IMG/VR virus record: IMGVR_UViG_3300002307_000001
Location: 1 to 64,000 of that record
Direction: 5' to 3' (one strand)
Length of the DNA: 64,000 nucleotides
Origin: a virus
The notes beneath the pieces were generated by a model. It saw nothing but the letters and a program-made list of their open reading frames with translations, was not told where the DNA came from and did no database searches. Numbering within the stretch: position 1 is the stretch's first letter; every line of letters begins with the position of its first letter. Positions 8,270 through 60,891 of this stretch are shown in pieces. A program made the translations under genes and the position numbers.

Positions 8270-8315
8270 ACAACAGATAAACAATAAACAACAACTAAAA
8301 ATTAAACAAAAGAAA

Positions 8316-9200: not shown

Positions 9201-9252
9201 ATAATAAAATAATATATATGAATATTAGATGAAATTACTTGAAATAATGTTG

Positions 9253-9372
9253 TAAATTAGCACTGCTGATTATCTACTAATGTTCCAAAGAAATTTCATA
9301 CAAAATAATAGCCCTTTATACAGGAATTTACCCTCTCAATTGGTAGATATCAGCACCTGTATAAGGGGCTAT
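9253..9372 (+). promoter_or_regulatory. structured 5' leader (putative RNA switch) of the LAGLIDADG gene
   Basis: TAAATTAG promoter-like element; 17 bp stem 9308-9324/9356-9372; 9264-9281 is complementary to loop segment 9339-9355. Confidence 0.65.
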
Positions 9373-9380
9373 CATATATC

Positions 9381-10244
9381 ATGAAAAATACACAGGAAAA
9401 GCTACTATTGGGCAATAAAGAGTTTATAGTAAACAGATATCTCGTAGATAGGAAATCCCCCATAAGTATAGGAAGAGAAATTGGTGTTTCTGAAGGACCG
9501 ATAAGAAACAAACTTATAGAGTGGAATATACCTATAAGAACTAATGGAGAATCTCACAGAAAATACAAAGTAAATGAAGAATATTTTAATAAAGTTGATA
9601 CAGAAGAAAAAGCCTACTTCCTAGGGTTGTTATATGCTGATGGAACTATGAATAAAGTTAGACCAACTGTATCTATCAGTTTACAAGAACAAGACAAAGA
9701 ACTATTAGATAAATTACAAATAGCTCTTAACAATGAAAGACCTATGACCTATATTCCACCAGATAAAAGGTTTTCTGGTTGTAGTGCTGCTAATAGGATT
9801 TATATAGATAGTCATAAAATGTGTAAACAATTACATATTCTCGGTATGTACCATAATAAAAGTAAGACAATATCATTTCCAACAGAAGCTCAGGTACCTA
9901 AAGAGCTACATAGGCATTTTATACGTGGGTACTTTGATGGCAATGGTTGTATATATACATATAGTGGTAAAAATTTACTAAGAACTACTCTTATATTGGT
10001 ATCTAACAAGTTCTTAAATACAAAAGTCAAGGAAATAGTACTAAATAATACTGATACAGATGCCTTTGTAGTAATTAAAGCTAATGATATAACAGAACTA
10101 AGATATTGCGGATTAAAAAAATCTATAAGTATTTTAAATTATATATACAAAGATGCAAAAATCTATATGGAAAGAAAGTATAAAAGTTATTTAGAGGTAT
10201 TAGAATTTTATAATAACAGAGAGGCTCTTACAAAAGCTAACTAA
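9381..10244 (+). CDS. free-standing double-motif LAGLIDADG homing endonuclease with N-terminal HTH
   Basis: AYFLGLLYADG and HFIRGYFDGNG motifs; C-terminal YMERK. Confidence 0.88.
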   Translation: MKNTQEKLLLGNKEFIVNRYLVDRKSPISIGREIGVSEGPIRNKLIEWNIPIRTNGESHRKYKVNEEYFNKVDTEEKAYFLGLLYADGTMNKVRPTVSISLQEQDKELLDKLQIALNNERPMTYIPPDKRFSGCSAANRIYIDSHKMCKQLHILGMYHNKSKTISFPTEAQVPKELHRHFIRGYFDGNGCIYTYSGKNLLRTTLILVSNKFLNTKVKEIVLNNTDTDAFVVIKANDITELRYCGLKKSISILNYIYKDAKIYMERKYKSYLEVLEFYNNREALTKAN

Positions 10245-10277
10245 GTAAATTCACAAACTAAATGGAAATAACAATAG

Positions 10278-10315
10278 GGAGGGTATATAATAGTGTATAC
10301 TCTCCTTTGTTGTTT
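10278..10315 (+). terminator. putative intrinsic terminator
   Basis: GGAGGGTATAT/GTATACTCTCC stem followed by TTTGTTGTTT. Confidence 0.6.
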
Positions 10316-10332
10316 CTATTAAATAACCGAAT

Positions 10333-10647
10333 ATGAAAATACTAATAGAAGTAGAAATACCTAATAGAGAGTACCCGCAGTTAGTTTGGGGCATATGGGA
10401 TCTTATAGAATTGTTTTATCCTGACTATTATCATTCAGAAACTATAGCAGTTGAAGGTGATTTAATAAAGTTGATAAAAAAGCTATACGAAAATGGAGAT
10501 CGTGCAGATGACCTATTACAAGCTGTATACAATGGTGATATTAATAATCCACAAATACTAATAGACTCTAACCGGTTACAGAAAGAAATCTATGAAGACA
10601 CTATAAACGCATTCATCAGTAATATAGAGTCAATAAAGCAGATATGA
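10333..10647 (+). CDS. hypothetical protein
   Basis: 104 aa ORF. Confidence 0.65.
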   Translation: MKILIEVEIPNREYPQLVWGIWDLIELFYPDYYHSETIAVEGDLIKLIKKLYENGDRADDLLQAVYNGDINNPQILIDSNRLQKEIYEDTINAFISNIESIKQI

Positions 10648-10809
10648 ACAAGCCAAAGATAGGAGATCTCCGGATAGCAGTATGTGAAGAAACACAGCTG
10701 GAAGTAGTACAGCAATATGTAGGAGCACCAGATGAATGGTTGTGTATTCACAATGATACAGATGAAGAAGATGCAGAAGAAGTAAAGAAATTAAGACAAA
10801 AAGAACAAG

Positions 10810-11016
10810 ATGGAGAATAGAATAATAACAGTAACCGGGTGCCATAACTGCATATTCAAAGATGAAGAATATGAACAGCAGGTGTGTAATGAAATAGCCA
10901 GGACGGGAGCAAAATGGGTAGATAGCAGAGGTTTTCATGAGTTGTATGAAGAAAATCTCTTACCTCTCAGTTGCCCTTTAAGAAGAGAGGAAATAACAAT
11001 AGTACTCAAACGATAA
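10810..11016 (+). CDS. small Cys-containing hypothetical protein
   Basis: CxxC...C...CPL pattern. Confidence 0.6.
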   Translation: MENRIITVTGCHNCIFKDEEYEQQVCNEIARTGAKWVDSRGFHELYEENLLPLSCPLRREEITIVLKR

Positions 11017-11021
11017 AATAA

Positions 11022-11207
11022 ATGCTGAGTAAAACATATTGGAGAAATAAAGTACTCCAAAAAGCAATAAAGAGACATAAGGTACGAATCTATACTCTGG
11101 ATATATCCTGTACTGGTGAATATGGTAATAGGGGTAGAGAGATAGTACAGCCAGAGATAGATGCTGAATTAAGATGCATAAGAAGAATTAAAAAACTGAT
11201 AAAATGA
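11022..11207 (+). CDS. small basic hypothetical protein
   Basis: 61 aa ORF in the operon. Confidence 0.55.
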   Translation: MLSKTYWRNKVLQKAIKRHKVRIYTLDISCTGEYGNRGREIVQPEIDAELRCIRRIKKLIK

Positions 11208-11357
11208 TCCAGATAGATATATTAGAAGAAACCAACTCATTAGAAGAAATGGCAGAAGTATTAGAAGTAATAGCTAGTATGATAAAAGCAGGGTTCACAA
11301 AAGGTTATGATCCTAACTGGGATATAAATGGTTATGAAGAAAAAATAGATATATAAT

Positions 11358-12173
11358 ATGGAAATAAAATACCTAATAGACGGAAGACAAGTAGAAGTAA
11401 TAGAAAAAGTAAGTAAGGGGTATCTGGTATCAGATGTGTATGAATATTATAGTGATGGTGAAGATCCTCAGGAATATACAAATGAATATCCATATATAGC
11501 TAAAGAAGTATTCGATAAAGCTCCTACTAAAAAGTTCGATGAAACTATAATTAAATTACAGGAAGATATAGATAAGCTGCACGATAAGAAAAGAGAACTA
11601 ATAACCTATATAGACACAAGTCAACACGAGCAAGCTGAAAATATTAAAAAATATCAAAAATATAGTCAGTTAAAGTTACTTAATGACTTTATAGATAACA
11701 AGATAACTCACTATGTGTTATTAGATAGTCGTGACTATGATATAGTAGAGTGGAGTACTACAGAAAGTGAATATGCATGTAGCGAAAGAGGTATAGGTAA
11801 AATGAAGCTGTTATCTTTATTTGGAAAAGCAGATGGTAACTTGGAATGGGGATTAAATCAATACAGTGATGGTAGTGGTGGGTCGGGTACATTAGTATAT
11901 CCGGCTATATCCTATGAAAATGCACTAGAATTACTAACAGAACATCTGAATACAGTAATACAGCAGTATTATGATAATCCTGCTACCCTATACTATGCGG
12001 ATAAAGTTGTTAGGTCAGCTAAGAAATATAATATACAGCTGTCAGAAAAGTTCATAGAAGTGTATAAAGAAGCTAAAGCGGTAGAAATAACAAAACAAGT
12101 AGAACAAGTTAAAAAAGAAATACAACAAGCGGAAAACCGGTTAAAGGGACTGGAAGAACAGCTAAACAACTAA
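11358..12173 (+). CDS. hypothetical protein with coiled coils
   Basis: 271 aa; LSLFG...W..N.Y.DGSG segment. Confidence 0.75.
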   Translation: MEIKYLIDGRQVEVIEKVSKGYLVSDVYEYYSDGEDPQEYTNEYPYIAKEVFDKAPTKKFDETIIKLQEDIDKLHDKKRELITYIDTSQHEQAENIKKYQKYSQLKLLNDFIDNKITHYVLLDSRDYDIVEWSTTESEYACSERGIGKMKLLSLFGKADGNLEWGLNQYSDGSGGSGTLVYPAISYENALELLTEHLNTVIQQYYDNPATLYYADKVVRSAKKYNIQLSEKFIEVYKEAKAVEITKQVEQVKKEIQQAENRLKGLEEQLNN

Positions 12174-12174
12174 T

Positions 12175-12405
12175 ATGGGAGAAGAAGAAATCGTGGAAGT
12201 TAGGAAATTAGCTGAATACCTCGCTATCAATGACTGGAAAAGTAGAATGACCAATATACCAGATAAAGATATACAGGTAGCTGAATTAGTAAATACAGAA
12301 GAAGGAATGAAAGTAATATACGATATACACCCTCAATGGGCTAATGATCTGTTCAACCTGCAAACAGCCTATGAGGAAATTATAATGCAATTCGTTAAGA
12401 AATAA
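12175..12405 (+). CDS. hypothetical protein
   Basis: 76 aa ORF. Confidence 0.65.
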   Translation: MGEEEIVEVRKLAEYLAINDWKSRMTNIPDKDIQVAELVNTEEGMKVIYDIHPQWANDLFNLQTAYEEIIMQFVKK

Positions 12406-12406
12406 G

Positions 12407-12414
12407 TACATTCG
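12407..12414 (+). promoter_or_regulatory. putative -7 promoter element (TACATTCG) upstream of primase
   Basis: Variant of TAnnTTTG. AGTACATTCG recurs identically at 23637-23646. Confidence 0.5.
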
Positions 12415-12434
12415 GAACTCTAAAATAATAGCAA

Positions 12435-13427
12435 ATGTTCCTGGAAAAGAAAGTAGAGCCACTAAATATCAATAAGGAACTAATATTCTCTAAAATTTCA
12501 GACTATGACGTGTATAAAATGTATGTGTCTAATTTCAAGTTAGGTGAAAGTATATGCAGCCCATTAAGACAGGATAGGCACCCATCATGGAGTGTATTTC
12601 AGGTAGAAGGCAGGTTAGTATATAAAGACATGTCAACTGGTGAGTCTGGTAACTGTATAACACTGGTAGAAAGGATGTTCTCACTAAATTTCGATAAAGC
12701 TCTTAGAAAGATAGCAAATGACTTTGGAATAGTAAGTGATACTCAAGACTATAAAAAGATAACAGCAGCCTATAACAAGCCTCTAATGCAAGAGAAAATA
12801 CATGCATTTATACAATGTACCTGCAAAAAGTACACCAACAGAGAACTAAAACATTACTGGGGAAGATATGTAGTCATAGGACTGGAGAAACTGCGTAAAC
12901 ACGAGGTATATTCGTTGAAAGATGTGTTCCTGAACAGAAAGAAGATACCAATAGGAAAAGATGAGATGGTATTTGGTTATTACTATAATGGTAGCTGGAA
13001 AATTATGTTCCCGGAAAGAGAGAAAAATAGAAAATGGATCAGCAATATACCACTAGATACACCAGTAGGGCTAAGTAATCTAAATAAAGATCATAATAGT
13101 CTTATTATTAAAAGCAAAAAATGTTATATGGTTATGGAAGAAGTATATCCCTATCTTGCGTACATGCAAAATGAGGGATTAGGTTCTGTAACTCCAAAAA
13201 CAGCAAAGTATATAGATGAAAATAGTAAAACAGTATTCTATGGCGGGGATAGTGATGCACCTGGTAAAAAAGCAAGTTACCTTATTACGAATGCCTATAA
13301 ATGGAATCACGTCAATACTCCAGATATACTACTACCTAATACAAAAGATTGGAGTGACTGGGCATTAGAAGCTCAAAGTATAAAACCAATACAAAATCAT
13401 CTAATAAAAAAAGGCGTAATAACATGA
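12435..13427 (+). CDS. DNA primase (DnaG-like Zn-binding-like and TOPRIM domains)
   Basis: CSPLRQDRHPS, KD..TGE.GN, F..AL..I, TOPRIM DSDAPG and KDWSD. Confidence 0.85.
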   Translation: MFLEKKVEPLNINKELIFSKISDYDVYKMYVSNFKLGESICSPLRQDRHPSWSVFQVEGRLVYKDMSTGESGNCITLVERMFSLNFDKALRKIANDFGIVSDTQDYKKITAAYNKPLMQEKIHAFIQCTCKKYTNRELKHYWGRYVVIGLEKLRKHEVYSLKDVFLNRKKIPIGKDEMVFGYYYNGSWKIMFPEREKNRKWISNIPLDTPVGLSNLNKDHNSLIIKSKKCYMVMEEVYPYLAYMQNEGLGSVTPKTAKYIDENSKTVFYGGDSDAPGKKASYLITNAYKWNHVNTPDILLPNTKDWSDWALEAQSIKPIQNHLIKKGVIT

Positions 13428-13909
13428 CAGATACAAACAATACAGAACTATATGGTCAGGAACTAAAGTTCAAAGTAACAGATAAAGGCACCGGGTACCT
13501 GCTAGTGAGAGCATATACTCAAAGTGAGTGGTATAGCTGTAACTGTGCTTATATGAGTATAGATGAAGAAACTATAGCCAGATATCAGAAGTGTGATCAG
13601 ATAGCCAAGGAACTAAAAGAACTAGACTCCTCATTCGGATATGTAAGTTACTATGAAGGAATAGAGTATCTGAGTACATACGAAGATATAGTAGATGAGA
13701 ATAAGTCATTTAGCTGGATAGAGTTTGAAGAAGGAGGAATAGAGCAGTTAGATGAATTACATACAGAACAGCAGGTAGATACACAAATGATAAGGTTTTA
13801 TGGTGATGGTAATATTAGATTCGTGGGATACGGAAAACACACTAGCAAAGAATTCTGGACAGATGCAATCCACATAAACCTATTAGAAGAACAGATACAA
13901 AACAAGTAA
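13424..13909 (+). CDS. hypothetical protein
   Basis: 161 aa ORF, ATGA-coupled. Confidence 0.7.
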   Translation: MTDTNNTELYGQELKFKVTDKGTGYLLVRAYTQSEWYSCNCAYMSIDEETIARYQKCDQIAKELKELDSSFGYVSYYEGIEYLSTYEDIVDENKSFSWIEFEEGGIEQLDELHTEQQVDTQMIRFYGDGNIRFVGYGKHTSKEFWTDAIHINLLEEQIQNK

Positions 13910-13945
13910 ACAACAATAACTAACTAATATAAAAAAAACAATAAA

Positions 13946-15061
13946 ATGACAGATACACTAGTATATAAAGCAGTAAGTCCATTAGAGGCAATAGTAAATA
14001 AGTTAGAAGATCAGAAGAAAGCACAGTATGATATGGTACTACCAGGTGGTCATGTGCGGTATAATGCAGGTACAGGGTTATTAGAGGTGATGAAAGCCGA
14101 GATAGAAGAATATGCAATAACTGATCTATGTCACCTGCAGATAGGAGATAAACTGGAGATACCTCGATCCTACTATAAGAAGATGCTATCATCTGCACCT
14201 GAGCTACTAGGGCAGAATATTAATGGGTGGTTAAGTAGGAAAGAAAAAACAAAGTTCCTGCTCAGGTCATTCAAATATCCAGATACCAACAACTTATGTA
14301 GAGCCATGCTATCTGACCGGTACTGTATCATGGATAACTATGATGTTCTATTAGCAGCATTAGAGGCAATTAAACAAACAGGTATAGCAGTAGAAATAGT
14401 AAAAGCAGAAATAACAGATAGTCGTATGTACCTACATGTAGTGGCACCTGAGATCCATGTACAGGCTACTGAACTGTTAGATGGGTATCTGGCTAATACA
14501 GAAGCCGCAATCCTCAACAAGGGCATTATAAGTGGTATGGTGATTACTAATAGTGAAGTAGGTATGGGAACATTCGAGGTAAGTGCAAGAGCGCAGATAC
14601 TCAGGTGTAAAAATGGTATGCACGATAGATCAGCTAAGTTCAGAAAAGTGCATCTGGGTGGTAGGTTAGAAGAAGGTACAGTAACATGGAGTCAAAATAC
14701 CAAGAATAAGAACTTCGATCTGATAATAGCACAAACCAAGGATGCTGTAAAGACCTACCTGAGTGAAGACTATCTAGGGCAGTTAACAACTAAGTTAACA
14801 AAATCTAAGGAAGTGCAGATAGAAAATCCAATACAGGTGATCGAAAATGTATCACTATCAGTAGGTATGGGAGAAGAACATAAAAACAGTATCCTCAGAT
14901 ACTTCCTGGGTGATGGAGATAACAGTGCATTTGGAGTACTCAATGCATTCACAAGAGAATCACAGAAGTTAGATGCAGATAATCAGTACCGGGTAGAATC
15001 AGAGGTATTCGAGCTATTACCTGATATACACAAGTTCGATAAACCAAATTCAAAAAACTAA
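13946..15061 (+). CDS. DUF932-like phage/plasmid protein
   Basis: RAMLSDRY..MDN, ITNSEVG.G, RCKNGM, H.G, NAFT motifs. Confidence 0.75.
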   Translation: MTDTLVYKAVSPLEAIVNKLEDQKKAQYDMVLPGGHVRYNAGTGLLEVMKAEIEEYAITDLCHLQIGDKLEIPRSYYKKMLSSAPELLGQNINGWLSRKEKTKFLLRSFKYPDTNNLCRAMLSDRYCIMDNYDVLLAALEAIKQTGIAVEIVKAEITDSRMYLHVVAPEIHVQATELLDGYLANTEAAILNKGIISGMVITNSEVGMGTFEVSARAQILRCKNGMHDRSAKFRKVHLGGRLEEGTVTWSQNTKNKNFDLIIAQTKDAVKTYLSEDYLGQLTTKLTKSKEVQIENPIQVIENVSLSVGMGEEHKNSILRYFLGDGDNSAFGVLNAFTRESQKLDADNQYRVESEVFELLPDIHKFDKPNSKN

Positions 15062-15086
15062 TTAACAACCTAAACAAAAAAGAAAA

Positions 15087-15659
15087 ATGAGCACACGTAT
15101 AACAAAAGCAATTGCAGAAAGTACAGCAAGTAAAGTAGTAGCACCTATAGATGTTAAAATGAAAGAGATAGAATCTCAGATAGAAGAAATAGTAACAGAG
15201 ATCTATATAAAGCAGATACCAAAAGAAGTAATGATCTTGTGGGCTAAGTTCCCTAATTATTGTAAGCGTACAACTATTTTATATCTGAATAGCAATGGTT
15301 TTTCCAAGAGAGCTGTACGTATTAAAGATAATAAAGAGCTTCCCAGAGAAGGTAATGGTAGTTGGGGAACTCCAGAAGTCACTATAACCAAAGAACAAGC
15401 AGTTAAACTAAATAAGCTGGAGGTACAGAAGGAAAAGCTAAAAGAGAAGGAGGAAACTACCTACAAAGAGGTAGAAAGTACACTTCTTGCCCTTGGCACT
15501 TACAAAAGAGTCCAAGAGAATATGGCAAAACTTTATAACCTTCTACCTACAGCAACTAATAACAACATGCAACTGATGATAAACTTAGCTCCTTTAAATG
15601 AAAAGATAGATTGTTTGCTATCTGAAGATACTGAAAAGAAATGCATTTCAAAACTATAA
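15087..15659 (+). CDS. hypothetical protein, possibly Nmad5-like
   Basis: N-terminal RITKAIAE and C-terminal L..L.T.KR pattern resemble Nmad5. Not verified. Confidence 0.45.
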   Translation: MSTRITKAIAESTASKVVAPIDVKMKEIESQIEEIVTEIYIKQIPKEVMILWAKFPNYCKRTTILYLNSNGFSKRAVRIKDNKELPREGNGSWGTPEVTITKEQAVKLNKLEVQKEKLKEKEETTYKEVESTLLALGTYKRVQENMAKLYNLLPTATNNNMQLMINLAPLNEKIDCLLSEDTEKKCISKL

Positions 15660-15669
15660 AATAACTATA

Positions 15670-16041
15670 ATGAGTGTACAAGTAAACCAATATGTAATGC
15701 TGGCAGTTAAACTTCCAGGTACATGGATAGATGAATGGGAAAAGAATAATAAAGATAAGTACTTCTATAGCACATTTGAAGGGTACATGGGTGATAGTGC
15801 CTACAGTACCAAAATAGGTGGTAAGGACGGTATATTCATGCTCTATGATGGTATGTCAGGTAAGTACCTATATGTAGGCAAGGTGATAGCTAAAACTGCC
15901 GAAGATGATGAAGGAATAACAATGGAGATACCCCTGATAGATATTAGAGAAGCTCATGAACTGGAACAGCAGATAAAAGCACTAATAGGACCAGTAGATG
16001 ACCCCTTTCCTAAATACCACATCATAACCCATTACCGGTAA
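15670..16041 (+). CDS. hypothetical protein
   Basis: 123 aa; DGMSGKYLYVGKVI segment. Confidence 0.7.
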   Translation: MSVQVNQYVMLAVKLPGTWIDEWEKNNKDKYFYSTFEGYMGDSAYSTKIGGKDGIFMLYDGMSGKYLYVGKVIAKTAEDDEGITMEIPLIDIREAHELEQQIKALIGPVDDPFPKYHIITHYR

Positions 16042-16081
16042 TATACAGCACACCTGCTATAGACAGTGTAGCTGGTGTATA

Positions 16082-16225
16082 ATCAGGTAGTAGGATAGAA
16101 AAAGTGATCAGAATCTGACAGCAATAAATGCCCTATCCGGAGACCTCAAACCCTCTGTGGTAGGGCATTACAGCTGTTAATGGGCATCTGACACTTTATC
16201 TGCAGTATAGAATCAGATACCTGGT
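16082..16225 (+). ncRNA. long nested rod-like stem-loop (putative structured RNA or origin element)
   Basis: Five nested helices: 16082-89/16218-25, 16101-06/16192-97, 16108-12/16187-91, 16116-22/16173-79, 16127-35/16161-69. Confidence 0.55.
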
Positions 16226-16366
16226 GAGGTGAGTATAAAAGGGGAAAAAGTAAATAGAGTAAAATCCTCGGAAAGTCAATACAGTAAAGGAATACAGAAG
16301 AATCGCAAACTGTCAGTAAAAGTACAATAGTAAAATAACAAATATACATACAAAAATGTACGAAAT

Positions 16367-16957
16367 ATGGAAAGTAATAGTACCTTCGTAGTAAATGATA
16401 CAAAAATGAGCAAGAAGGTTCCACCATTAGACGAAAATAAGTTAAGGAGCAATCCATTCACTGAGACACTAGTAATACCTATAAATGAGCGAATAGATCC
16501 TATCATAAAAGTGAAGGATGAAAACGGTAAAGAGGTAGCTATGGTGAATCCTATGGAATGGACAAAATCCACTAAGGTATATCACAACAAGGGTGCTGGA
16601 GATATGGCACTAGCACTATCAGCAGGGGGATTAAGAATGTATGTATACATAATACACAAAATAGAGTCAGCTCAAGACTGGATAAGGATAATGCCAGAGA
16701 ACTACGCCACCAAGTCAGATAGAGGATCTATAAACACCTATAAACGGGCTATAAACGAACTAATAGAAGCTAAGTACATCTGCCTATCACCGTGTAAGTA
16801 CACATACTACATAAACCCTGCTCGAATATTCTGTGGTAGTAGAATGCAGAAATACCCAGATAACCTAGAACTACGTGATAGATTCACCGGTAAAGATCCG
16901 AAAGCACCACCAAAGAAAGGTAGTAAACAGTGGATGGATGAAAATGAACCAAAATAA
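16367..16957 (+). CDS. RepL-like winged-helix DNA-binding/replication protein
   Basis: LS..GLRMYVYI, T.KRAINEL...Y, YYINP..IF.G.R. Confidence 0.7.
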   Translation: MESNSTFVVNDTKMSKKVPPLDENKLRSNPFTETLVIPINERIDPIIKVKDENGKEVAMVNPMEWTKSTKVYHNKGAGDMALALSAGGLRMYVYIIHKIESAQDWIRIMPENYATKSDRGSINTYKRAINELIEAKYICLSPCKYTYYINPARIFCGSRMQKYPDNLELRDRFTGKDPKAPPKKGSKQWMDENEPK

Positions 16958-16969
16958 ATAAGCAATAAC

Positions 16970-17218
16970 ATGAACCTACAAGATAAGAAAGAAGGAACAC
17001 TACTAGCACAACTACGTAATAAGCTAGGTCCAATAGTCAACTACTTCCAGTTACTGAGTGAGATAGATAAGTACCGGTCAAAAACTGATAATCTATCAAA
17101 GTATCGTGAAGACATCATAGCACAGGCTATTGAGAGTGAGAAAAAGACAAGTATGCAAATGCTACTACAGATAGTAGAGATAATAGAGGAAATGGAAAAA
17201 CAAGAAAACAACCAATAA
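16970..17218 (+). CDS. hypothetical protein
   Basis: 82 aa ORF. Confidence 0.65.
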   Translation: MNLQDKKEGTLLAQLRNKLGPIVNYFQLLSEIDKYRSKTDNLSKYREDIIAQAIESEKKTSMQMLLQIVEIIEEMEKQENNQ

Positions 17219-17287
17219 CATGCCAATAATAAGAGTACTAAAACATGATACAGTAAAAGCAGTTAAAGAGTATAAAGATAGTTAGAT

Positions 17288-18097
17288 ATGATATATGAAA
17301 ATACGGCAGGAAAATTCGGGAAATGGTGTTACTGGTTCAAAGAATACATTGAAAGTGAGGATATGAATCAGTTATTTGCACATATTAAAAGTAGATCGAC
17401 ATCAGGTGCAAAAATATTACCGGCATCTAGTGAACTGTTTAGGTGTTTCAAAGATACAGATCCAGATAATCTAAAGTGCATTATAGTAAATCATTCACCA
17501 TATTGTAATACATATGGTAAAGAAGGCGATAAGAAGGTAGTTGCAGATGGCCTAGCCCTAAGTTGCTCAAATACATGGAAAGATAAAGGACTAGAACCAG
17601 CACTAGCAGCCATCTATCTGGATATGGAGGAGAAATTCGATCCAGAGATGAATATGACAGGTGATCTAAGCTATCTGGCTGAACAAGGTGTGTTGCTATA
17701 TAATGTAGCATTGACGGTGGAAGCAGATAAAAGTATGTCGATGAATGATGCATGGAGTAGTTTCAATAAGTTCTTCTTCGAGAAAGTAGTGAATGTGTTC
17801 TTCCGTGGATTACCTATCATATTCCTAGGCAATGTAGCTGCAAAGAGTGCAAATTACCTCACTCCAATGCTTCACTATCCATTCTTATTACCACATCCGG
17901 ATAGTGCCAGTAATAAGGGTAAATGGAGCAGCAATGGAGTGTGGCAATCAGTTAATAAAATACTAGCACAGAATAACGGTAATCAGCATATCAACTGGTA
18001 CCTGAAAATAGGAGATAAGAAAGTAGATAGAACAAGTAGTTACAAACCAGAGAATAAAATAGATCCAAGTAAAGTATCGGATCTTCCCTTTGATTAA
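17288..18097 (+). CDS. uracil-DNA glycosylase family 1-like protein, degenerate active site
   Basis: ILP...LFR.F, ADGLALS, LSYLAEQGVLLYN.ALTV, IFLG, PHP. The GQDPY motif is replaced by NHSPY. Confidence 0.82.
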   Translation: MIYENTAGKFGKWCYWFKEYIESEDMNQLFAHIKSRSTSGAKILPASSELFRCFKDTDPDNLKCIIVNHSPYCNTYGKEGDKKVVADGLALSCSNTWKDKGLEPALAAIYLDMEEKFDPEMNMTGDLSYLAEQGVLLYNVALTVEADKSMSMNDAWSSFNKFFFEKVVNVFFRGLPIIFLGNVAAKSANYLTPMLHYPFLLPHPDSASNKGKWSSNGVWQSVNKILAQNNGNQHINWYLKIGDKKVDRTSSYKPENKIDPSKVSDLPFD

Positions 18098-18111
18098 TAA
18101 AACAAGATAAT

Positions 18112-18435
18112 ATGAAAGCAATAAAGGGATATACAGTTATTACTGAGTGTATAGGATATGATGAACTCTCTTGGTCAACCGATGAAGGAGGGGTATTACT
18201 ACCTGACATCTACGAAACTCAGTTAGAAGCTGAAAAAGAAATAATCAGATATCAGATAGATAGGTTACAAAGTGTAGAAAGTTGTCTAGAAAAAGGAGAT
18301 TACAATGATATAGACTGGACACCTGATGTATATGTAGCACAGATACTAATAGATGAGAAAGAGAACCTATTGGTATGGGAAGGAGATAGATCACTAATAG
18401 CAACAACATTGCAAAATTGGCGTAATAACAAATAA
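18112..18435 (+). CDS. hypothetical protein
   Basis: 107 aa ORF. Confidence 0.65.
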   Translation: MKAIKGYTVITECIGYDELSWSTDEGGVLLPDIYETQLEAEKEIIRYQIDRLQSVESCLEKGDYNDIDWTPDVYVAQILIDEKENLLVWEGDRSLIATTLQNWRNNK

Positions 18436-18441
18436 ATTTAG

Positions 18442-18534
18442 TACCTTTGTGTAGATAAATGCACTCGTACTGCATTAAAGAAATTGGCCTGTTCATGGTG
18501 TAGGAGTACGAGACCTATACTAATGTTCAGGCCA
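18442..18534 (+). promoter_or_regulatory. promoter plus kissing-loop leader of the HNH gene
   Basis: TACCTTTG at 18442-49; hairpin AATGCA-CTCGTAC-TGCATT; a second hairpin (18485-18534) with loop AGTACGAGA complementary to the first loop. Confidence 0.68.
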
Positions 18535-18549
18535 TAATTATTTATACAA

Positions 18550-19257
18550 ATGAAGTTAATTCAACTTGGAAAAGGAAATTACTCAGTAAAAGTAGATGAT
18601 GAAGATTATGATAAATTAAGTAAATATAATTGGCAATTGTCAAATAAAAGAGCTGCTAATAAATATGCTGTTAGAGATATATACCCAAATAGTAAAAGAA
18701 CAACTGTTAGAATGCATAGAATTATAATGAATCTAACTGATTTGAAATTAGTAGTAGACCACATAGATGGAGACGGACTAAACAATCAAAAAAGTAATCT
18801 AAGAATAGCTACACCTGGTCAAAATTGTGCAAATCGACAACCTTCTATAAATAGAAATTATCTAGGAGTATCTCCTCCAACTACTAATTGTAAACTATGG
18901 AGAGCAAGATGTAAACAGCAAGTTATACAAGCAAGAACAGAAGTTGAAGCCGCATTATTATATAATGAAATGGCTATAAAAACTCATGGGGAATTTGCTA
19001 GATTAAATGTAGTAACAGAAAAAGATAAAAAGAAAAGTGATGAATATATAAATGCATTACCTATAATAATACCAGATACAGAAACTCATAAAACTTGTAA
19101 AAAATGCAATGAACATAAAGAAAGAAAAATGTATAATAATCAAAAAAACTCTAAAGATGGGAAGCAACCCATATGTAAACAATGTTGCAATAAATATCAA
19201 AAATATAAAAGAGAAAAAATTGGAGAAAAAATCTATAGAATATGCAAGTTAACCTAA
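18550..19257 (+). CDS. HNH (HNH_3) homing endonuclease with AP2-like domain and C-terminal Zn finger
   Basis: VDDED, MHR.I, VDHIDGDGLNNQKSNLR, EAA..YN..A...HGEFA.LN, CKKC..CKQC. Confidence 0.88.
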   Translation: MKLIQLGKGNYSVKVDDEDYDKLSKYNWQLSNKRAANKYAVRDIYPNSKRTTVRMHRIIMNLTDLKLVVDHIDGDGLNNQKSNLRIATPGQNCANRQPSINRNYLGVSPPTTNCKLWRARCKQQVIQARTEVEAALLYNEMAIKTHGEFARLNVVTEKDKKKSDEYINALPIIIPDTETHKTCKKCNEHKERKMYNNQKNSKDGKQPICKQCCNKYQKYKREKIGEKIYRICKLT

Positions 19258-19430
19258 CAGATAGAGAAATAGAAGCAATAGGTAATGTAGTAGATCATTA
19301 TCTACTAAAAGAAGAAGCTGATTATAATACATGGTTAGATACTACTAGTGAAGATGAAGTACAATTATTTAATCATATTTATACAGATCTAGAGATATTG
19401 AATAAACTATACATAAAATTGAAGAAATGA
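19242..19430 (+). CDS. hypothetical protein
   Basis: 62 aa ORF. Confidence 0.6.
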   Translation: MQVNLTDREIEAIGNVVDHYLLKEEADYNTWLDTTSEDEVQLFNHIYTDLEILNKLYIKLKK

Positions 19431-19666
19431 CAGATAGGTATATAAATAAGTTGGTTCATAAACTAATTAATAAAAAATGTAAGGAATTAATAGATGATAG
19501 TAAGGTAAAAGTACAGAACTGGCAAGAAATGTTAAGTAAAATAGATAATATACCACTAGTAAATGTTCAAGATGACGATACTTGGTGGGTACAAGATGGT
19601 TACTTACACGGTACTGGTAAATATATACCAATTATAGAAAAACTAATAAAAGAACAAGAACAATAA
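19427..19666 (+). CDS. hypothetical protein
   Basis: 79 aa ORF, ATGA-coupled. Confidence 0.6.
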   Translation: MTDRYINKLVHKLINKKCKELIDDSKVKVQNWQEMLSKIDNIPLVNVQDDDTWWVQDGYLHGTGKYIPIIEKLIKEQEQ

Positions 19667-19674
19667 CTGATAAT

Positions 19675-19869
19675 ATGGTAACACAACTGACAATAACCAT
19701 CAATGTAAGTACTGAAGTAGCCGGAGATGCATATGACCATATCAAAAAGGCCATGGAAGAAATATTGAATAGCATAGATGATCAAAATGAAGAAAACTAT
19801 GAATCATCAGGAACTATAGAAGAAGATGGATGGGAAAAACAATGGGAATATAAAATGATACAAATATGA
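19675..19869 (+). CDS. hypothetical protein
   Basis: 64 aa acidic ORF. Confidence 0.6.
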   Translation: MVTQLTITINVSTEVAGDAYDHIKKAMEEILNSIDDQNEENYESSGTIEEDGWEKQWEYKMIQI

Positions 19870-20075
19870 AACTATACCAGATACTAGGAGAAGAAGATGA
19901 CGAAATAGGACTAATATACACAGACACATCTGCAGATGTAGTAAAAGCAATGTGGAGTAAGATATACAGTGAAGATGAGCCGGAAGATGGCAGCTACATG
20001 GAAGTGTTAGAAGAAAAACTATCAGAGAAATACCAGACACAGATAATATACATAGAAAGTTATATAAAACCATAA
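19866..20075 (+). CDS. hypothetical protein
   Basis: 69 aa acidic ORF. Confidence 0.6.
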   Translation: MKLYQILGEEDDEIGLIYTDTSADVVKAMWSKIYSEDEPEDGSYMEVLEEKLSEKYQTQIIYIESYIKP

Positions 20076-20300
20076 AACGACAAACAATGAAGAAGGAACT
20101 ACAAAAGAAAATTACTTACTGGGAAGGGCAATTAAAGAAATTTACAAAGACATATATAGCAGACATGAAACGTACTTCAAGAGATCTGGTTATGATGGCT
20201 CAAACTCGTATTCAGGTATATGAAGAACTAATGCAGACGATAAAAGACTAAATGAAAAAGTGGATAGTAAAACATCATGAAGGAAAAGAATATGGAATAT

Positions 20301-20331
20301 ATAACCAGGATACAATATCCTGGTTATTTTT
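20301..20331 (+). terminator. terminator-like hairpin
   Basis: Perfect 12 bp inverted repeat ATAACCAGGATA/TATCCTGGTTAT followed by a T run. Lies inside a possible 49 aa ORF (20252-20401). Confidence 0.55.
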
Positions 20332-20385
20332 CTCTTTCTCAGTAGTGAAATTAAGAAAATGTGTTAATCTATTAAAAAGACAAAA

Positions 20386-21096
20386 ATGGAACAAGAAATA
20401 GAATATAGAGGATATAAAATACAAATACATTACGATCAGAGTGCAGAAAATCCTAGAACATTGTATGATAACTACGGGGTTATGTGCTGTTGGCATAGTA
20501 GATACAATCTAGGAGATAGTGAAAGCTGGAAAGATAGTAGTGGAAAAAGGAAAAGCAAACAGTTGAGTGATAACTACCAGGAACCAATAGATCTACTATA
20601 TGAACTAGCAGGTATAGATAGAAATGAATACCAAGAGCAGGAATATGAAAAAATCGGTAAGTGGGACGATATGTCATATGAAGATCTGTACACTAAGATA
20701 GAAGAAAAAGGTACTATTATATCACCACTTTACCTATATGATCATTCAGGTATTACGATATCTATGGGGTCATTTGGATGTAGATTTGATAGTGGGCAAG
20801 TGGGCTACATATACATGACTAAAGAAACTATAGAGAAAGAGGAATGGACACCTGAACAAGCTATGAAATATATGGAAGGTGGGGTAGAAGTATATGACAA
20901 TTACCTAACCGGTGAAGTGTATGGGTGGGTAGTAGAAGACGCAGATGAAGATGAAATAGATAGATGTAGTGGATATTATGGAGATGAGGGTGTAAAAGAT
21001 GCCATTGCAGAGGCCAAGTCAACTATTGACAAGTTAGTTGAAAATAAACACAAGAAAGATTTATTATTAGGTATTCAAATAGAATTAGCAATATGA
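20386..21096 (+). CDS. conserved phage hypothetical protein
   Basis: PLYLYDHSGITIS...DSGQVG and YL.GEVYG..C.GYYG motifs typical of a phage/MGE family. Confidence 0.7.
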   Translation: MEQEIEYRGYKIQIHYDQSAENPRTLYDNYGVMCCWHSRYNLGDSESWKDSSGKRKSKQLSDNYQEPIDLLYELAGIDRNEYQEQEYEKIGKWDDMSYEDLYTKIEEKGTIISPLYLYDHSGITISMGSFGCRFDSGQVGYIYMTKETIEKEEWTPEQAMKYMEGGVEVYDNYLTGEVYGWVVEDADEDEIDRCSGYYGDEGVKDAIAEAKSTIDKLVENKHKKDLLLGIQIELAI

Positions 21097-21361
21097 GCAC
21101 AAAAACAAAAACTAAGAGAGTAAAGCAGGTATTTGGTAACATGTCTGAGATTGCACACATCTTTGCTAATGAACCAGGTAGAGATTGTAGGTTTGGTAGT
21201 GGAGATGTGGGGCAGAAGATGTACCTGTATACGATGTTAATGATGATGAAAGTAGAGCAGAGTTCTGGAGAGAATATACAGGGTTAGTAGGTAAAGGGAA
21301 TACACCTAACGATGCCCTGATTAATCTAAATGAAGAAATAAATAAAAGATATGGAAAATAA
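21093..21361 (+). pseudogene. chimeric or frameshifted remnant
   Basis: ORF 21093-21287 overlaps a start-less protein-like frame 21200-21361 (..GKGNTPNDALINL..). Confidence 0.45.
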
Positions 21362-21803
21362 GAAAGTTATCCTCGCCATAGATCAGGCAAGCCATTGTGG
21401 TTGGGCACTAAGCAAAGACCTATATGGTGTGTGGGACCTGACAACCAAGAAAGACGAGGACATGGGTATGAAGCTCATTAGGTTCCGTAACAAGCTAAAA
21501 GAGGTATGTGCATCTGAAGGAGTGAATATGATAGTATATGAACGTGTAGCAGGTATGCATACAGCCTCTATAATACATGCAGCTAAGATGGTAGCAATAA
21601 TAGAAACATTCTGTGCAGAAAATGGGATAAACTATACAGCATTCTCAGCTCAGGAAGTTAAGAAATTTGCTACCGGTAAAGGAAATGCCAATAAAGAAGC
21701 AATGGTGAAAGCAGCCCAGGAACAATATGGGTATCCAGGTACAGATGATAATATAGCTGATGCCCTACATATCTGGCATCTGGCTGTTAAAAATTTTCAA
21801 TAA
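21351..21803 (+). CDS. RuvC-like Holliday junction resolvase
   Basis: ILAIDQA...G, IVYE, VKKFATGKGNANK, DDNIADA. Confidence 0.88.
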   Translation: MENKKVILAIDQASHCGWALSKDLYGVWDLTTKKDEDMGMKLIRFRNKLKEVCASEGVNMIVYERVAGMHTASIIHAAKMVAIIETFCAENGINYTAFSAQEVKKFATGKGNANKEAMVKAAQEQYGYPGTDDNIADALHIWHLAVKNFQ

Positions 21804-21821
21804 TAAACAATAAATAAACAA

Positions 21822-22931
21822 ATGAATCTCGAAAAACGCACAATAATAACAGAAGTAAGTGAAAGAGAGTATAGGAAATTGACTCAGCGTATAAGTTCAA
21901 GTGATATACGTACATTCCTACAATCACGTAAGAAGTTCTACAAGACAGTAATATTACAGGAAAGGGCACCTAATGATGATACAGTATCAACTATATTAGG
22001 TTCTATAGCTGACTGTATACTCACCTGTCCAGATATGATGGATGATAAATTCCAAATTAGCACAAGCGGTATCCCAGCTGGTCAAATGGGAGAATTATGT
22101 GAAACACTGTTCAAAAGAGCAATGAAGAGTATAGATGCAGATGGGGTACAGAAGGATCAGTTCGAAACTATATTCACAGATGCAGTCAACTCTGTAAAAT
22201 ATGACGGAAATTTAGTTGAAGTAAAATTCAAAGGTAAAAGTCTGGAAAAGATATTACAGATGTTCACAGAGCCGGATAAAGACGGAGTGATACCTGAGCT
22301 ATATTATAAAGAGAAACTGGCTAGTATAGGTAAAACAGTAGTATCAGTAAATATGATGCAAAGTGGTGAAAAACATGCCAATGATCTCAAAGAAAGCAGG
22401 TATACAGCTGATATAATCAATGTACAAACATCTGGTAATGTAGAAGTGTTCTATCAGTTAGTAGTACTATTCACGTATAAGGATGTACAGATGAGAGGAA
22501 TGCTCGACAAAACCATCGTGGACCATGATAAAAAGACAATTCAGCCAATTGACATAAAGACGACCTACGATAATGAGGGGTTCGATAGAAGCTATCTGAA
22601 GGGATTATACATCCAAGCAGCTGTGTACGATGCAGCCCTAAACAAGTGGGCCAAAGAGCATGATCTGATGGGGTATGAGATATTGCCAATTAAGTACCCG
22701 GTAGCCGACACTGCTAATGAGAATATGCCATTAACGTACCAACTGACTACAGAAGATATTAAGAAAGCATATACAGGATTCAAACTAAAAGGCAGCAATA
22801 GGTTCTATAAAGGATTAGATCAGTGTATTGAGGAAATTAAGTGGCACAGTGAAACTGGAGAATGGCGCATAAGTAGAGAAGCATATAAGAATGATGGTAA
22901 ATTATTTATGGAATTTGAGTACCAAAACTAA
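21822..22931 (+). CDS. PD-(D/E)XK exonuclease (RecB/ExoVIII-like)
   Basis: ISSS.I, LGS..D, RGMLD, IDIKTT, Y.QAA.Y. Confidence 0.8.
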   Translation: MNLEKRTIITEVSEREYRKLTQRISSSDIRTFLQSRKKFYKTVILQERAPNDDTVSTILGSIADCILTCPDMMDDKFQISTSGIPAGQMGELCETLFKRAMKSIDADGVQKDQFETIFTDAVNSVKYDGNLVEVKFKGKSLEKILQMFTEPDKDGVIPELYYKEKLASIGKTVVSVNMMQSGEKHANDLKESRYTADIINVQTSGNVEVFYQLVVLFTYKDVQMRGMLDKTIVDHDKKTIQPIDIKTTYDNEGFDRSYLKGLYIQAAVYDAALNKWAKEHDLMGYEILPIKYPVADTANENMPLTYQLTTEDIKKAYTGFKLKGSNRFYKGLDQCIEEIKWHSETGEWRISREAYKNDGKLFMEFEYQN

Positions 22932-22941
22932 AACTATAACA

Positions 22942-23016
22942 ATGATAAATAAGAAAATGATCACACAGCTGGAACAGATAACACCGGCAATAGCATCAGA
23001 GATATTAGCTAACTAA
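22942..23016 (+). pseudogene. 24 aa gene remnant upstream of an HNH gene
   Basis: MINKKMITQLEQITPAIASEILAN-stop. Confidence 0.35.
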
Positions 23017-23029
23017 ATAAAACAACAAT

Positions 23030-23518
23030 ATGAAAAAGGGTTATAACAAACAAAATCCAGGAGCCTGTATAACATACCATAATAAAAGTAAAGTACCAGA
23101 ACACGGTATATGGAGGGGAATGCAACAAAGATGTTATAACCCTAAAAGAGTTAAGTATGCCATATATGGGGCAAAAGGTATAAAGATGTGTGATAGGTGG
23201 TTAGAAAAAGAAGGAAAAGGTTTTATGAACTTTCTAAGTGATATGGGTAGTAGACCAAGTAAAGATCATAGTGTAGAAAGAAAAGATAATGATGGTGACT
23301 ATACTCCGGATAACTGTAAGTGGGCTACTAGAAAAGAACAATGTAGAAATAGAACTACTACTAGATATGTGGAATATAAAGGAGAAAGAAAAAGTCTAGC
23401 AGAATGGGCAGAAGAAGTAGGAATAAAATATGCAACATTAATGGCAAGATTAAAAACTGGATGGGGTATTGATAGGATGATGACGCAAAAAAGTAGAATA
23501 TTTAAAAAAAGAAGTTAG
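23030..23518 (+). CDS. HNH-type homing endonuclease
   Basis: W..M.QRC.NP...Y..YG.KGI..C.RW, DMG.RP, SVERKDNDGDY.P.NC.WAT...Q..N, and a C-terminal HTH. Confidence 0.85.
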   Translation: MKKGYNKQNPGACITYHNKSKVPEHGIWRGMQQRCYNPKRVKYAIYGAKGIKMCDRWLEKEGKGFMNFLSDMGSRPSKDHSVERKDNDGDYTPDNCKWATRKEQCRNRTTTRYVEYKGERKSLAEWAEEVGIKYATLMARLKTGWGIDRMMTQKSRIFKKRS

Positions 23519-23638
23519 AAAGTCCAAAGAATAAAGAGCTGGTATTATCTAGTACCTATGCTCTTGTTATTGTTATAATCAGTAAATTGTAAAACAAAAA
23601 TAATCAGATGGCAGCTAGGTAATATCAGCTAATTGTAG

Positions 23639-23769
23639 TACATTCGTGTTGCTTATCAGTTATTATCATTCAATGTATTATTACAACCATTTAAAATATA
23701 AGATCCTAGTGCACAGATGCAGTTCCCTTCTTTATGAAGTAACTGATAAGCCTTCTGTGCACTAGGGTT
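23639..23769 (+). promoter_or_regulatory. promoter plus structured RNA-switch leader of the NUMOD4/DUF559 nuclease gene
   Basis: TACATTCG at 23639-46; 16 bp stem 23702-17/23754-69; 23651-69 is complementary to loop segment 23734-51. Confidence 0.68.
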
Positions 23770-23779
23770 ATTTCATTTT

Positions 23780-25084
23780 ATGGAAAATCAAGAAGAAATA
23801 TGGAAAGATATACCAGGGTATGAAAATTTATACCAAGCTAGTAATACAGGTAAAATTAAAAGATTACCCAGAATAGATATAAGTAGTACTGGGAGAAAAA
23901 CATCTGTTGAAGAAAAATTATTAATTTTTTCTCCTTCATGTAAGGATAAAGATTATAATGCAAGATTATATAGAAGTCCTACAGATGCAAAATATTTTAA
24001 AGTATCACGATTAATGTTATTAACATTTAAACCAACTCAAGGAAGTCATAATTATATTGCAAAAAGATATAATAAAGATAAATTAGACAATCATATAGAA
24101 AATCTATATTGGCACATAGTACCGGATACAGATACAAGGTTTTCAGTAGCTGAAATATATACTCAGAAAGAAATTTCCTATATAAGAGAAAATATGGATG
24201 AATTAAGTATTAAAGAAATTGCTATAAATCTAAATAGATCTCCTCATGGAATAAGAGAAAAGTTAAAAAGAGAAGGATTTTCTAAAAAAATATGTCATAC
24301 AGATGGTTGGAAAAAGAAAGATATAGAAATACTAAAAGAATATGCAGGAAAAATATCACACGAAGATATAGGAAAACTACTGAATAAAACACAAGGAGCT
24401 GTATCAGCAAAAGCTCATAAGTTAAAAATAAATAGTAGTGCAAGAAAAGGAACAAGAGAGGATAACTGGACTGCAAATGAATTAAAAATTTTAAAAAATT
24501 ATTACCCTGTAGAAGGTCCTTCTAAATTATCAAGATTATTACCAGGAAGAACTAAGCAAGGAATTACATTGAAAGCTCGTAGTATAGGGGTAGTAACAGA
24601 AAAAATGTGGACTAATGATGAATTAGAATTTCTTAAAAATAATTATCCAAAACTTACTTGTTATCAAATAGGAAAAATATTAAAAAGAAGTACTGTAGGT
24701 ATAAATAAAAAAAGATTAAAGTTAAAATTAAATGTAAAAAAGAAAAACAAAATCACTTTGCCAGAAAGTGTAATAATGGAATTTCTAAAAGAATCTAAAA
24801 TATTATATGATTTTCAATATAAAGTAGGTAGGTATATAACTGATTTTCGTATTAAAAACACTAATATTATAATAGAAGTTCAAGGAGATTATTGGCATGG
24901 TAACACTAATGTATATAAAAAATTAAGATCGTTTCAAGTTACAAAAATAGAAAAAGATAAGTTGAGAAAAGAGTTTATACAAAGTCAAGGTTATCAAGTA
25001 ATAGAAATATGGGAACAAGAAATTATTAAAGAATTGGATATTGTAAAAAATAAAATAAAAACTATAATAAATGGCAAAGGCTAA
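23780..25084 (+). CDS. NUMOD4 + degenerate HNH + tandem Trp-led helical repeats + DUF559/Vsr-like endonuclease
   Basis: EIWKDIPGYENLYQASNTG; repeated WT..E...LK..Y units; DF..EVQGDYWHG..D..R..GY.V.EIWE. Confidence 0.82.
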   Translation: MENQEEIWKDIPGYENLYQASNTGKIKRLPRIDISSTGRKTSVEEKLLIFSPSCKDKDYNARLYRSPTDAKYFKVSRLMLLTFKPTQGSHNYIAKRYNKDKLDNHIENLYWHIVPDTDTRFSVAEIYTQKEISYIRENMDELSIKEIAINLNRSPHGIREKLKREGFSKKICHTDGWKKKDIEILKEYAGKISHEDIGKLLNKTQGAVSAKAHKLKINSSARKGTREDNWTANELKILKNYYPVEGPSKLSRLLPGRTKQGITLKARSIGVVTEKMWTNDELEFLKNNYPKLTCYQIGKILKRSTVGINKKRLKLKLNVKKKNKITLPESVIMEFLKESKILYDFQYKVGRYITDFRIKNTNIIIEVQGDYWHGNTNVYKKLRSFQVTKIEKDKLRKEFIQSQGYQVIEIWEQEIIKELDIVKNKIKTIINGKG

Positions 25085-60880: not shown

Positions 60881-60891
60881 CTTTAATAGTA

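Follow-up and report, generated by a model that had tools for sequence, protein, structure and literature searches.

Self-pairing 5' leaders in front of three phage nuclease genes

Three unrelated nuclease genes of IMG/VR virus record IMGVR_UViG_3300002307_000001, encoding a LAGLIDADG, an HNH and a NUMOD4/DUF559 protein, are each preceded by a leader in which a segment at or near the 5' end of the predicted transcript (A) is complementary to the loop (A') of a hairpin (B:B') that stands just before the start codon. All three lie in the first 64 kb, the window analysed here, of this 125,268-bp record with direct terminal repeats. The three self-pairing leaders are real and well beyond chance, and they belong to a recurrent, covarying and uncatalogued class of phage leaders, which begins at the predicted transcription start (+1) and is tied, in the genomes examined, mainly to homing-endonuclease cassettes. 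As to their function, we favour, with a probability of about one half, the reading that each leader is a self-contained throttle acting in cis on the translation or transcription of its nuclease. Homing endonucleases need to be expressed enough to spread and too little to harm the phage that carries them, and the worked-out controls of their expression have so far come only from T4-like phages.

Architecture of the three leaders

Leader 1 and the LAGLIDADG cassette
9253-9260, + strand: degenerate Bacteroidota-type -7 box TAAATTAG, the sole TAnnTTnG within 9201-9380
G9265, + strand: predicted transcription start, from box spacing
9264-9281, + strand: segment A, 5' end of the predicted transcript, pairing with 9339-9355
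9308-9324 with 9356-9372, + strand: hairpin B:B', 17-bp stem and 31-nt loop
9339-9355, + strand: A', inside the 31-nt loop
9280-9384, + strand: upstream reading frame of 34 codons, crossing the hairpin; its TGA overlaps the gene's ATG (ATGA)
9381-10244, + strand: LAGLIDADG homing endonuclease gene, 287 aa (Pfam LAGLIDADG_3, E 3e-09)
10276-10307, + strand: canonical terminator-like hairpin ending the cassette (14-bp stem, 4-nt loop, T-rich tail)

Leader 2 and the HNH cassette
18442-18449, + strand: exact -7 box TACCTTTG, matching the consensus
G18454, + strand: predicted transcription start, from box spacing
18459-18475, + strand: small 5' hairpin of 5 bp, whose 7-nt loop CTCGTAC carries A
18486-18533, + strand: large imperfect hairpin, whose apical loop 18505-18513 holds A' (18505-18512)
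18550-19257, + strand: HNH endonuclease gene, 235 aa (Pfam HNH_3)

Leader 3 and the NUMOD4/DUF559 cassette
23639-23646, + strand: degenerate -7 box TACATTCG, placed as the exact boxes are in the homologous leaders L007 and L009
G23651, + strand: predicted transcription start, from box spacing
23651-23664, + strand: segment A, 5' end of the predicted transcript, 14 bp with 23738-23751, one of them G-U
23702-23717 with 23754-23769, + strand: hairpin B:B', 16-bp stem and 36-nt loop, followed by a T-rich tail
23738-23751, + strand: A', inside the 36-nt loop
23780-25084, + strand: NUMOD4 + DUF559 nuclease gene (Pfam), 434 aa, its end overlapping a recA-like gene at 25071-26108

In all three leaders the segments follow one another in the order A, B, A', B', the loop complementing the 5' segment of its own gene, and the hairpin ends 8, 16 and 10 nt before the AUG in leaders 1, 2 and 3, respectively. 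A reading made from the sequence alone had proposed one such layout before three unrelated nuclease genes, and the features were found where it had placed them or within 1-2 nt. The leader RNAs, 95-130 nt long, are predicted to fold into pseudoknots (leaders 1 and 3) or into a loop-loop kiss (leader 2). The A:A' duplex of leader 1 comprises 7+10 bp with one bulge and one G-U pair and amounts to -19.8 kcal/mol, and the loop of this leader can adopt an inner fold (-4.8 kcal/mol) that competes with A for A'; such a competing fold is present in 10 of 18 leaders and absent from the other 8, and is not a defining trait. In leader 2, 18464-18471 is complementary to the apical loop of the large hairpin over 8 bp, and the leader folds to -38.2 kcal/mol on the + strand as against -23.1 kcal/mol on the - strand.

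The Bacteroidota -7 box consensus is TAnnTTTG, as quoted in the introduction of PMC7366714. The exact consensus occurs at 24 non-coding places of the genome, both strands counted, and at 5 of these the box G lies 5-6 nt before an ATG (window 2659 and 28272; genome 109164 on the + strand, 111758 and 107398 on the - strand), which suggests that these five genes, the intron-borne GIY-YIG gene among them, may be expressed from leaderless mRNAs. By analogy with these five, the transcription starts of the leaders were predicted from a 5-nt spacing past the box G. The relaxed box TAnnTTnG has 168 copies on the + strand of the 125,268 nt, exactly one of them in each leader; the promoter element that the sequence-only reading had put before every leader is present in all three, in its exact consensus form only in leader 2.

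The folds and pairings stand clear of shuffled sequence. The + strand minimum free energies (MFE) have z-scores of -4.2, -6.8 and -5.2 in leaders 1, 2 and 3, with 0 of 200 shuffles as stable, and the complementarity of each loop with the upstream segment of its own gene, as had been claimed, is equalled by only 1, 4 and 22 of 1000 dinucleotide shuffles. Five of the six non-cognate loop/upstream pairs are ordinary (63 to 715 of 1000 shuffles as good), and one, the NUMOD loop against the HNH upstream segment, is low (12 of 1000). An initial detector, which took the strongest hairpin as B and then scored the duplex energy of loop against upstream, missed true class members such as L007 and L009 because A:A' is often the stronger helix; it was replaced by an interleaved-helix detector built on the order A, B, A', B', an A'-B' gap of at most 10 nt and a B' end at most 40 nt from the ATG. 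By the latter score the three nuclease genes rank first to third among the genome's 163 gene leaders (68, 63 and 43; next 41), the helices chosen in leader 2 being other than the kissing loops.

Each lock and key is private to its leader, as the sequence-only reading had it: neither A nor A' of leaders 1 and 3 (14-15-nt boxes) has a second copy in the 125-kb genome at one mismatch or fewer, and the boxes of leader 2 recur only as 10-mers with one mismatch. Nor is there any obvious common primary sequence, again as proposed, beyond a single 11-nt word in leaders 1 and 2. That the structure acts as + strand RNA, a further part of the proposal, is supported: the + strand MFE is the lower one in 13 of 15 leaders (Wilcoxon p 0.004), a comparison somewhat biased in that the members were chosen by a detector permitting G-U pairs on the + strand, and it is difficult to see what other than a transcript would put the helix in register with the predicted +1. 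In an AT-rich genome (34% G+C) short complements are common, 7-nt loop-to-upstream matches occurring in 20 of 67 + strand hairpins, and one might therefore think of chance, or of something at the level of DNA that plays no part as RNA, for instance a small palindromic mobile element or a protein operator; but against this stand the shuffle and permutation tests, the register with +1, the G-U pairs and the strand asymmetry, as well as the fact that each sequence is single-copy in the genome, unlike a repeated element, and that an inverted duplication would not give the interleaved order, so that we find such an origin barely credible.

No catalogued family covers the leaders, as had been supposed: Rfam 15, searched with the whole window at the gathering threshold, returned only a group I intron at 3396-3670, and with 9000-25200 at E <=5 three weak matches, none of them within a leader. 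In the accessible parts of the literature we found no description of a 5'-end-to-loop endonuclease leader, and the list of PMC10690425 (more than 10,000 candidate phage RNAs) may include a similar motif.

The region upstream of leader 3 (23537-23631) holds a further long-range pairing, of about 23538-23552 with 23615-23629 (15 bp, two of them G-U), as well as two A-like words, TAATCAG, at about 23569 and 23594.

Relatives of the leaders in other phages

Homologues of leader 3 precede NUMOD4 genes that share the N-terminus MENQEEIW in unrelated IMG/VR phages (L007, and L009, which equals L010 and L008; L-numbers designate individual homologue leaders or contigs, and G-numbers the phage genomes compared). 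They consist, in this order, of a box, 4 nt, A with GC at its start, an A-rich spacer, B, A' with GC at its end, B', a T-rich stretch and the ATG, and across leader 3, L007, L009, L021, L088 and the leader in G003 both helices vary in sequence yet remain paired. The collections searched yielded no homologues of leaders 1 and 2.

The pairing extends beyond this lineage. An interleaved pair is found in 25 of 76 non-redundant NUMOD4-gene leaders taken from IMG/VR, against 235 of 1520 shuffles, and 8 of the 76 exceed the 99th percentile of the shuffles that gave a hit. The unbiased evidence is a box-anchored permutation test on all those of the 76 leaders, 18 in number, whose ATG follows an exact TAnnTTTG box at a distance of 60-170 nt, chosen without regard to complementarity: when the 20 nt after the box are set against the downstream leader, the cognate weight is 20.0 and the non-cognate weight 13.8 +/- 2.9, none of 10,000 permutations reached the observed sum, and 6 of the 18 leaders rank first. 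The check for covariation in homologues has come out in favour of the sequence-only proposal, both within the leader 3 lineage and class-wide. Nine leaders were tabulated with the box as anchor, the table being fitted to the pairing; in all nine the distance from the predicted +1 to the first base of the helix is 0 or 1 nt, and A' ends 25-31 nt before the ATG. Little is constant past the first G-C pair, and the family helices covary freely. MAFFT alignments of the leaders lose the register of the covarying helices.

When four entire phage genomes (281 kb) were scanned on both strands from exact boxes, 8 raw hits came out, 3 of which precede an open reading frame (ORF), in each case a NUMOD4 endonuclease; the window leaders escaped the scan because their boxes are degenerate or, in leader 2, because A lies away from +1. 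In G003 a Lin1244_N replication-type gene is preceded by a homologous leader whose box is degenerate, and the leader module is not exclusive to endonucleases. On bacterial genome contigs, 70 leaders were scored: above the high-score line were 0 of the 20 on contigs labelled Bacteroidota and 3 of the 50 others, and a box-anchored helix was present in 1 of the 20 and 1 of the 50. Two leaders, L201 and L246, on contigs labelled Clostridia and Bacilli, have the A, B, A', B' order behind a TTGAAT-N17-TATAAT promoter, with a hairpin of 24-25 bp followed by a T-run and GGAG; their two helices are mutually exclusive, because the spacers measure only 3 nt and 1 nt.

The class can be defined by a box, an A near +1, B, an A' in the loop 0-10 nt before B', and 8-25 nt from there to the ATG. 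Leaders 1 and 3 show every one of these features, with degenerate boxes, and leader 2 fits the class in a variant form, with A at +11 in the loop of the small hairpin. A wider reading is possible, and we put it forward tentatively: the leaders may be a widespread uncatalogued class of transcription-start-anchored pseudoknot RNAs that serve as a portable expression-control module of homing-endonuclease cassettes, in which case L201 and L246 would act as a factor-free co-transcriptional switch between the 5'-end helix and a terminator.

Beside the L007 endonuclease, in G001 (L105), lie two small genes, at 1545 and 1871, with interleaved-helix scores of 54 and 48; before the gene at 1545 four segments could pair either 1:2 with 3:4 or 1:3 with 2:4, in the manner of a classical attenuator.

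What the leaders may do

Under the cis throttle that we favour, each nuclease gene would be expressed from its own promoter with a structured 5' leader RNA, whose first bases (A) would pair with the loop A' of the hairpin B:B' before the AUG. This pairing of the 5' end would lock the fold and bury the end itself, and the clamped hairpin, by leaving 8-16 free bases before the start codon, would make ribosome loading rare in a type of host that initiates without Shine-Dalgarno (SD) pairing, thereby keeping toxic nucleases quiet; the hairpin may also double as a leaky terminator in those relatives that have a T-tract, perhaps in leader 3 as well. The interpretation offered by the sequence-only reading is partly supported: the architecture and the link with cassettes stand, but its switch and antisense proposals, in the form given, do not find support. 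The following evidence leads us to favour the throttle. The start regions are highly paired: over positions -18 to -1 the pairing probability is 0.63, 0.73 and 0.78 in leaders 1, 2 and 3, against 0.39 +/- 0.19 for 163 genes (ranks 20, 9 and 3), with the start codon itself predicted to be mostly open in leader 1. The summed pseudoknot energy, taken before any loop penalty, lies below that of the nested fold (-44.2 vs -29.2, -32.2 vs -23.2 and -39.7 vs -33.4 kcal/mol). Finally, A is free to pair, because the 5' part from the predicted start is unstructured.

Several observations weigh against a throttle, or at least against one that is common to the whole class. Occlusion of the start region is not family-wide, with pairing of only 0.04-0.39 in L051, L055, L062 and L077. 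A T-rich tail (5 T or more within an 8-nt stretch that begins 0-2 nt past the stem) follows the hairpin in only 10 of 18 leaders, the count being 6 in leader 3, 5 in leader 2 (by hand) and 3, hence no such tail, in leader 1. A terminator scan flags 10276-10307 and 20301-20327 and none of the three leader hairpins, because their loops are large (31, 9 and 36 nt in leaders 1, 2 and 3, against 3-8 nt for a canonical intrinsic terminator). The transcription starts are predictions from box spacing, the boxes of leaders 1 and 3 are degenerate, the strand comparison carries the bias noted above, and the sequencing runs listed with this DNA, a single freshwater metagenome DNA run that may be its source, include no RNA run that carries it. 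As for distribution, 68 of the 76 NUMOD4 leaders fall under the high-score line, so that the layout is not a general NUMOD4 trait, as do 68 of 70 leaders of LAGLIDADG homologues (2 above it), and the layout is absent from three other endonuclease genes of the same genome, namely GIY-YIG 2671, GIY-YIG 59802-60659 (- strand) and NUMOD4-HNH 103980. The proposal that the leaders travel with endonuclease cassettes is supported by the joint recurrence of leader 3 and the MENQEEIW N-terminus in unrelated phages; the three bare endonuclease genes and the Lin1244_N gene with its leader limit it.

An alternative that uses the same structures is leader-peptide coupling, whereby a short frame that begins after A runs through the hairpin to the nuclease start or close to it, A:A' gates its initiation, and its translation would open the hairpin or prevent a terminator, passing ribosomes on to the nuclease gene. 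All three window leaders hold a frame: besides that of leader 1 (9280-9384), for which the chance is 0.05 in shuffles of this leader, there are frames at 23673-23765 (30 codons) in leader 3 and at 18459-18503 (14 codons) in leader 2. The leader in G003 has a 32-codon frame with the same ATGA overlap as leader 1, L009 has an upstream ATG in frame with its gene, and the peptides of L007, L009 and G003 start alike (MKTLKNP, MKTFKNP and MKNFINP), although this likeness may reflect only conserved RNA sequence. We nevertheless regard coupling as unlikely, in that no more than 5 of 19 leaders have a frame which starts in the first 32 nt and reaches B' (2.18 would be expected, P 0.07), and 10 of the 19 lack any such frame.

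The open start regions of several members, which tell against a general throttle, would suit a positive role instead, in which the fold, by shielding the triphosphate at the 5' end, guards against 5'-end-dependent decay and keeps the cassette's start region insulated from whatever flanks its insertion brings, so as to raise or stabilise expression. In line with such a role, the helix starts at the predicted +1 in all nine tabulated leaders, and A' abuts B' (0-3 nt) in leaders 1 and 3, L009, L062 and L088, where a continuous stack burying the 5' end would be possible; a plain 5' hairpin would suffice for this purpose, however, and the start regions of the three window leaders are strongly paired, which leaves the probability of a positive role low. 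The same stacking has also led us to consider an RNA processing site, the A:A' and B:B' helices (25-34 bp together) being cut by a double-strand-specific RNase. The argument for it is one of geometry (leader 1 has 17+17 bp, leader 3 has 14+16 bp, and A' and B' are 0-2 nt apart); given that many members have short helices (7+7 to 7+9 bp) and A'-B' gaps of 5-9 nt, processing is very unlikely.

The sequence-only reading had further suggested that the leaders distinguish read-through from own-promoter transcripts, which amounts to the logic of T4 I-TevI: only read-through transcripts would be blocked, whereas own-promoter transcripts would lack part of the structure and be translated. Leader 2 conforms to it, as its box region 18446-18457 pairs over 12 bp with the 12 nt before the AUG (15 of 500 shuffles as good) and the predicted start at 18454 removes most of that arm. 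The other 12 of the 13 leaders tested, leaders 1 and 3 included, show nothing of the kind (122 to 493 of 500 shuffles as good), and in those 12 the predicted start retains all of A; in leaders 1 and 3, where the first base of A is the predicted start, nothing of the structure is lost from own-promoter transcripts. The suggestion fits leader 2 and none of the other leaders tested, and as an account of the leaders in general it is decidedly improbable.

Two other candidates were rejected. A riboswitch would call for a conserved ligand-binding core, and there is none, the leaders sharing only the 11-nt word and the family helices covarying freely. An antisense or trans-acting device, which the sequence-only reading had also entertained, finds no support, since the partners lie within about 100 nt of each other and have no other target in the genome. 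The antisense RNAs of phages P1 (C4) and P4 (CI) act in trans on repeated targets through short complementary boxes; the present leaders likewise have short complementary boxes in leader RNA, but their pairs are single-copy and act in cis.

Some known systems come closer. The T4 gene 32 operator is a compact pseudoknot bound by the gene's own product, a protein that binds single-stranded DNA (SSB). Like it, the present structures are predicted pseudoknots located at a phage mRNA's 5' end, with a short, unstructured A/U-rich stretch between them and the start codon; unlike it, they precede nuclease genes and have long helices private to each leader. The gene 32 leader pseudoknot is mentioned as a translational operator in PMC10690425. 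T-even phages carry hairpins that cover the ribosome-binding site (RBS) of homing endonuclease genes (I-TevI, I-TevII, I-TevIII, segB and Aeh1 mobE), and these hairpins, which are bypassed by a late promoter inside the structure, are thought to restrict nuclease synthesis (PMC2988022). Our leaders resemble them in placing a stable RNA structure directly before a homing endonuclease start, beside a promoter. As far as that account goes, they differ from such simple SD-covering hairpins in having no SD and in a predicted pseudoknot or kiss that uses the 5' end of the transcript, and from the promoter bypass in that the predicted start of leaders 1 and 3 keeps the whole structure, only leader 2 having a read-through-specific pairing.

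In seg43(25) of Aeromonas phage 25 a very stable hairpin lies just upstream of the RBS without covering it, its function being untested there (PMC2988022); as in our leaders, the hairpin ends right before the start region, and the accessible part of that paper describes no pairing of a 5' segment with the loop. The T4 mobE gene, a free-standing HNH endonuclease gene, is dosed by a leaky intrinsic terminator in its 5' region, with 30-50% termination of the transcript (PMC2790892), and many relatives of leader 3 similarly have a G+C-rich stem and then a T-tract. The mobE terminator, as described there, combines a 9-bp stem with a 4-nt loop, is situated within the ORF and belongs to a gene with no promoter of its own, whereas in the window hairpins the loops measure 9-36 nt and pair with the 5' end, and a T-tract is missing from leader 1. 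We count the T-even precedents in favour of a throttle, because endonuclease expression is limited there by RNA structure and by a 5' terminator. A last comparison comes from IMG/VR leaders upstream of LAGLIDADG homologues: in L114, L122 and L127 the inner hairpin loop (CTCCTAA, CTCCGAA and CCTCTAA, respectively) complements the SD site (TTAGGAG, TTCGGAG and TTAGAGG) and covaries with it. These leaders share with ours pseudoknotted, covarying, private pairings before homing endonuclease genes, but their loops pair downstream with the SD, in SD-using phages, whereas the loops described here pair upstream with the 5' end of the transcript.

These leaders would provide a concrete case of translation or termination control in bacteria whose initiation is not led by the SD. 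If our reading is right, private pairings of free sequence but fixed geometry constitute a new RNA family for the catalogues, the leader marks the boundaries of cassettes in phage genomes, and compact, mutually non-interfering parts for expression control may become available for Bacteroidota, where tools are scarce; should the leaders also prove to be a portable module, they would give mobile genes a new and general means of dosing themselves wherever they are inserted.

The surrounding genome

The record probably derives from an uncultured freshwater phage with a Bacteroidota host, the host being proposed because of the TAnnTTTG-type boxes. The genes between 1 and about 34,250 are encoded by the + strand; among them are those for a family-A DNA polymerase, a primase-like zinc ribbon protein and RecA. 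Neither the phage nor its three nuclease genes have close relatives in any of the collections searched: megablast of 8000-26000 against phage records gave no match, a search of IMG/VR with the LAGLIDADG and RecA proteins gave no confirmed relative, and tblastn with RecA reached an identity of at most 35%. The nearest relative of the NUMOD4/DUF559 protein in a set of 5.8 billion proteins is 28% identical, and the LAGLIDADG protein has 402 relatives, the closest at 43% identity. The HNH_3 match of the HNH protein (E 3.4e-05, 23.8 bits) falls slightly below the 24.8 cut-off in hmmscan and above it in the genome search.

The family-A DNA polymerase gene is split. Its exonuclease and N-terminal polymerase part occupies 1275-2633, and the C-terminal polymerase part, without a proper start, 3762-4304; they are separated by an insert in which lie a GIY-YIG endonuclease gene (2671-3447) and the core of a group I intron (RF00028, 3396-3670, 84 bits). 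An intergenic gap of 340 nt, at 16035-16375, folds to -82.5 kcal/mol with a long hairpin at about 16127-16169 and has no Rfam match; within it, at 16346 on the minus strand, lies TATATTTG. Upstream of the second GIY-YIG gene, a 232-nt gap on the - strand (60660-60891) looks coding-like and has no called ORF. Outside the window, at 109673-109742, 115946-116040 and 124452-124601 of the genome (+ strand), there are interleaved helices, scoring 54-56, that are not tied to a gene start.

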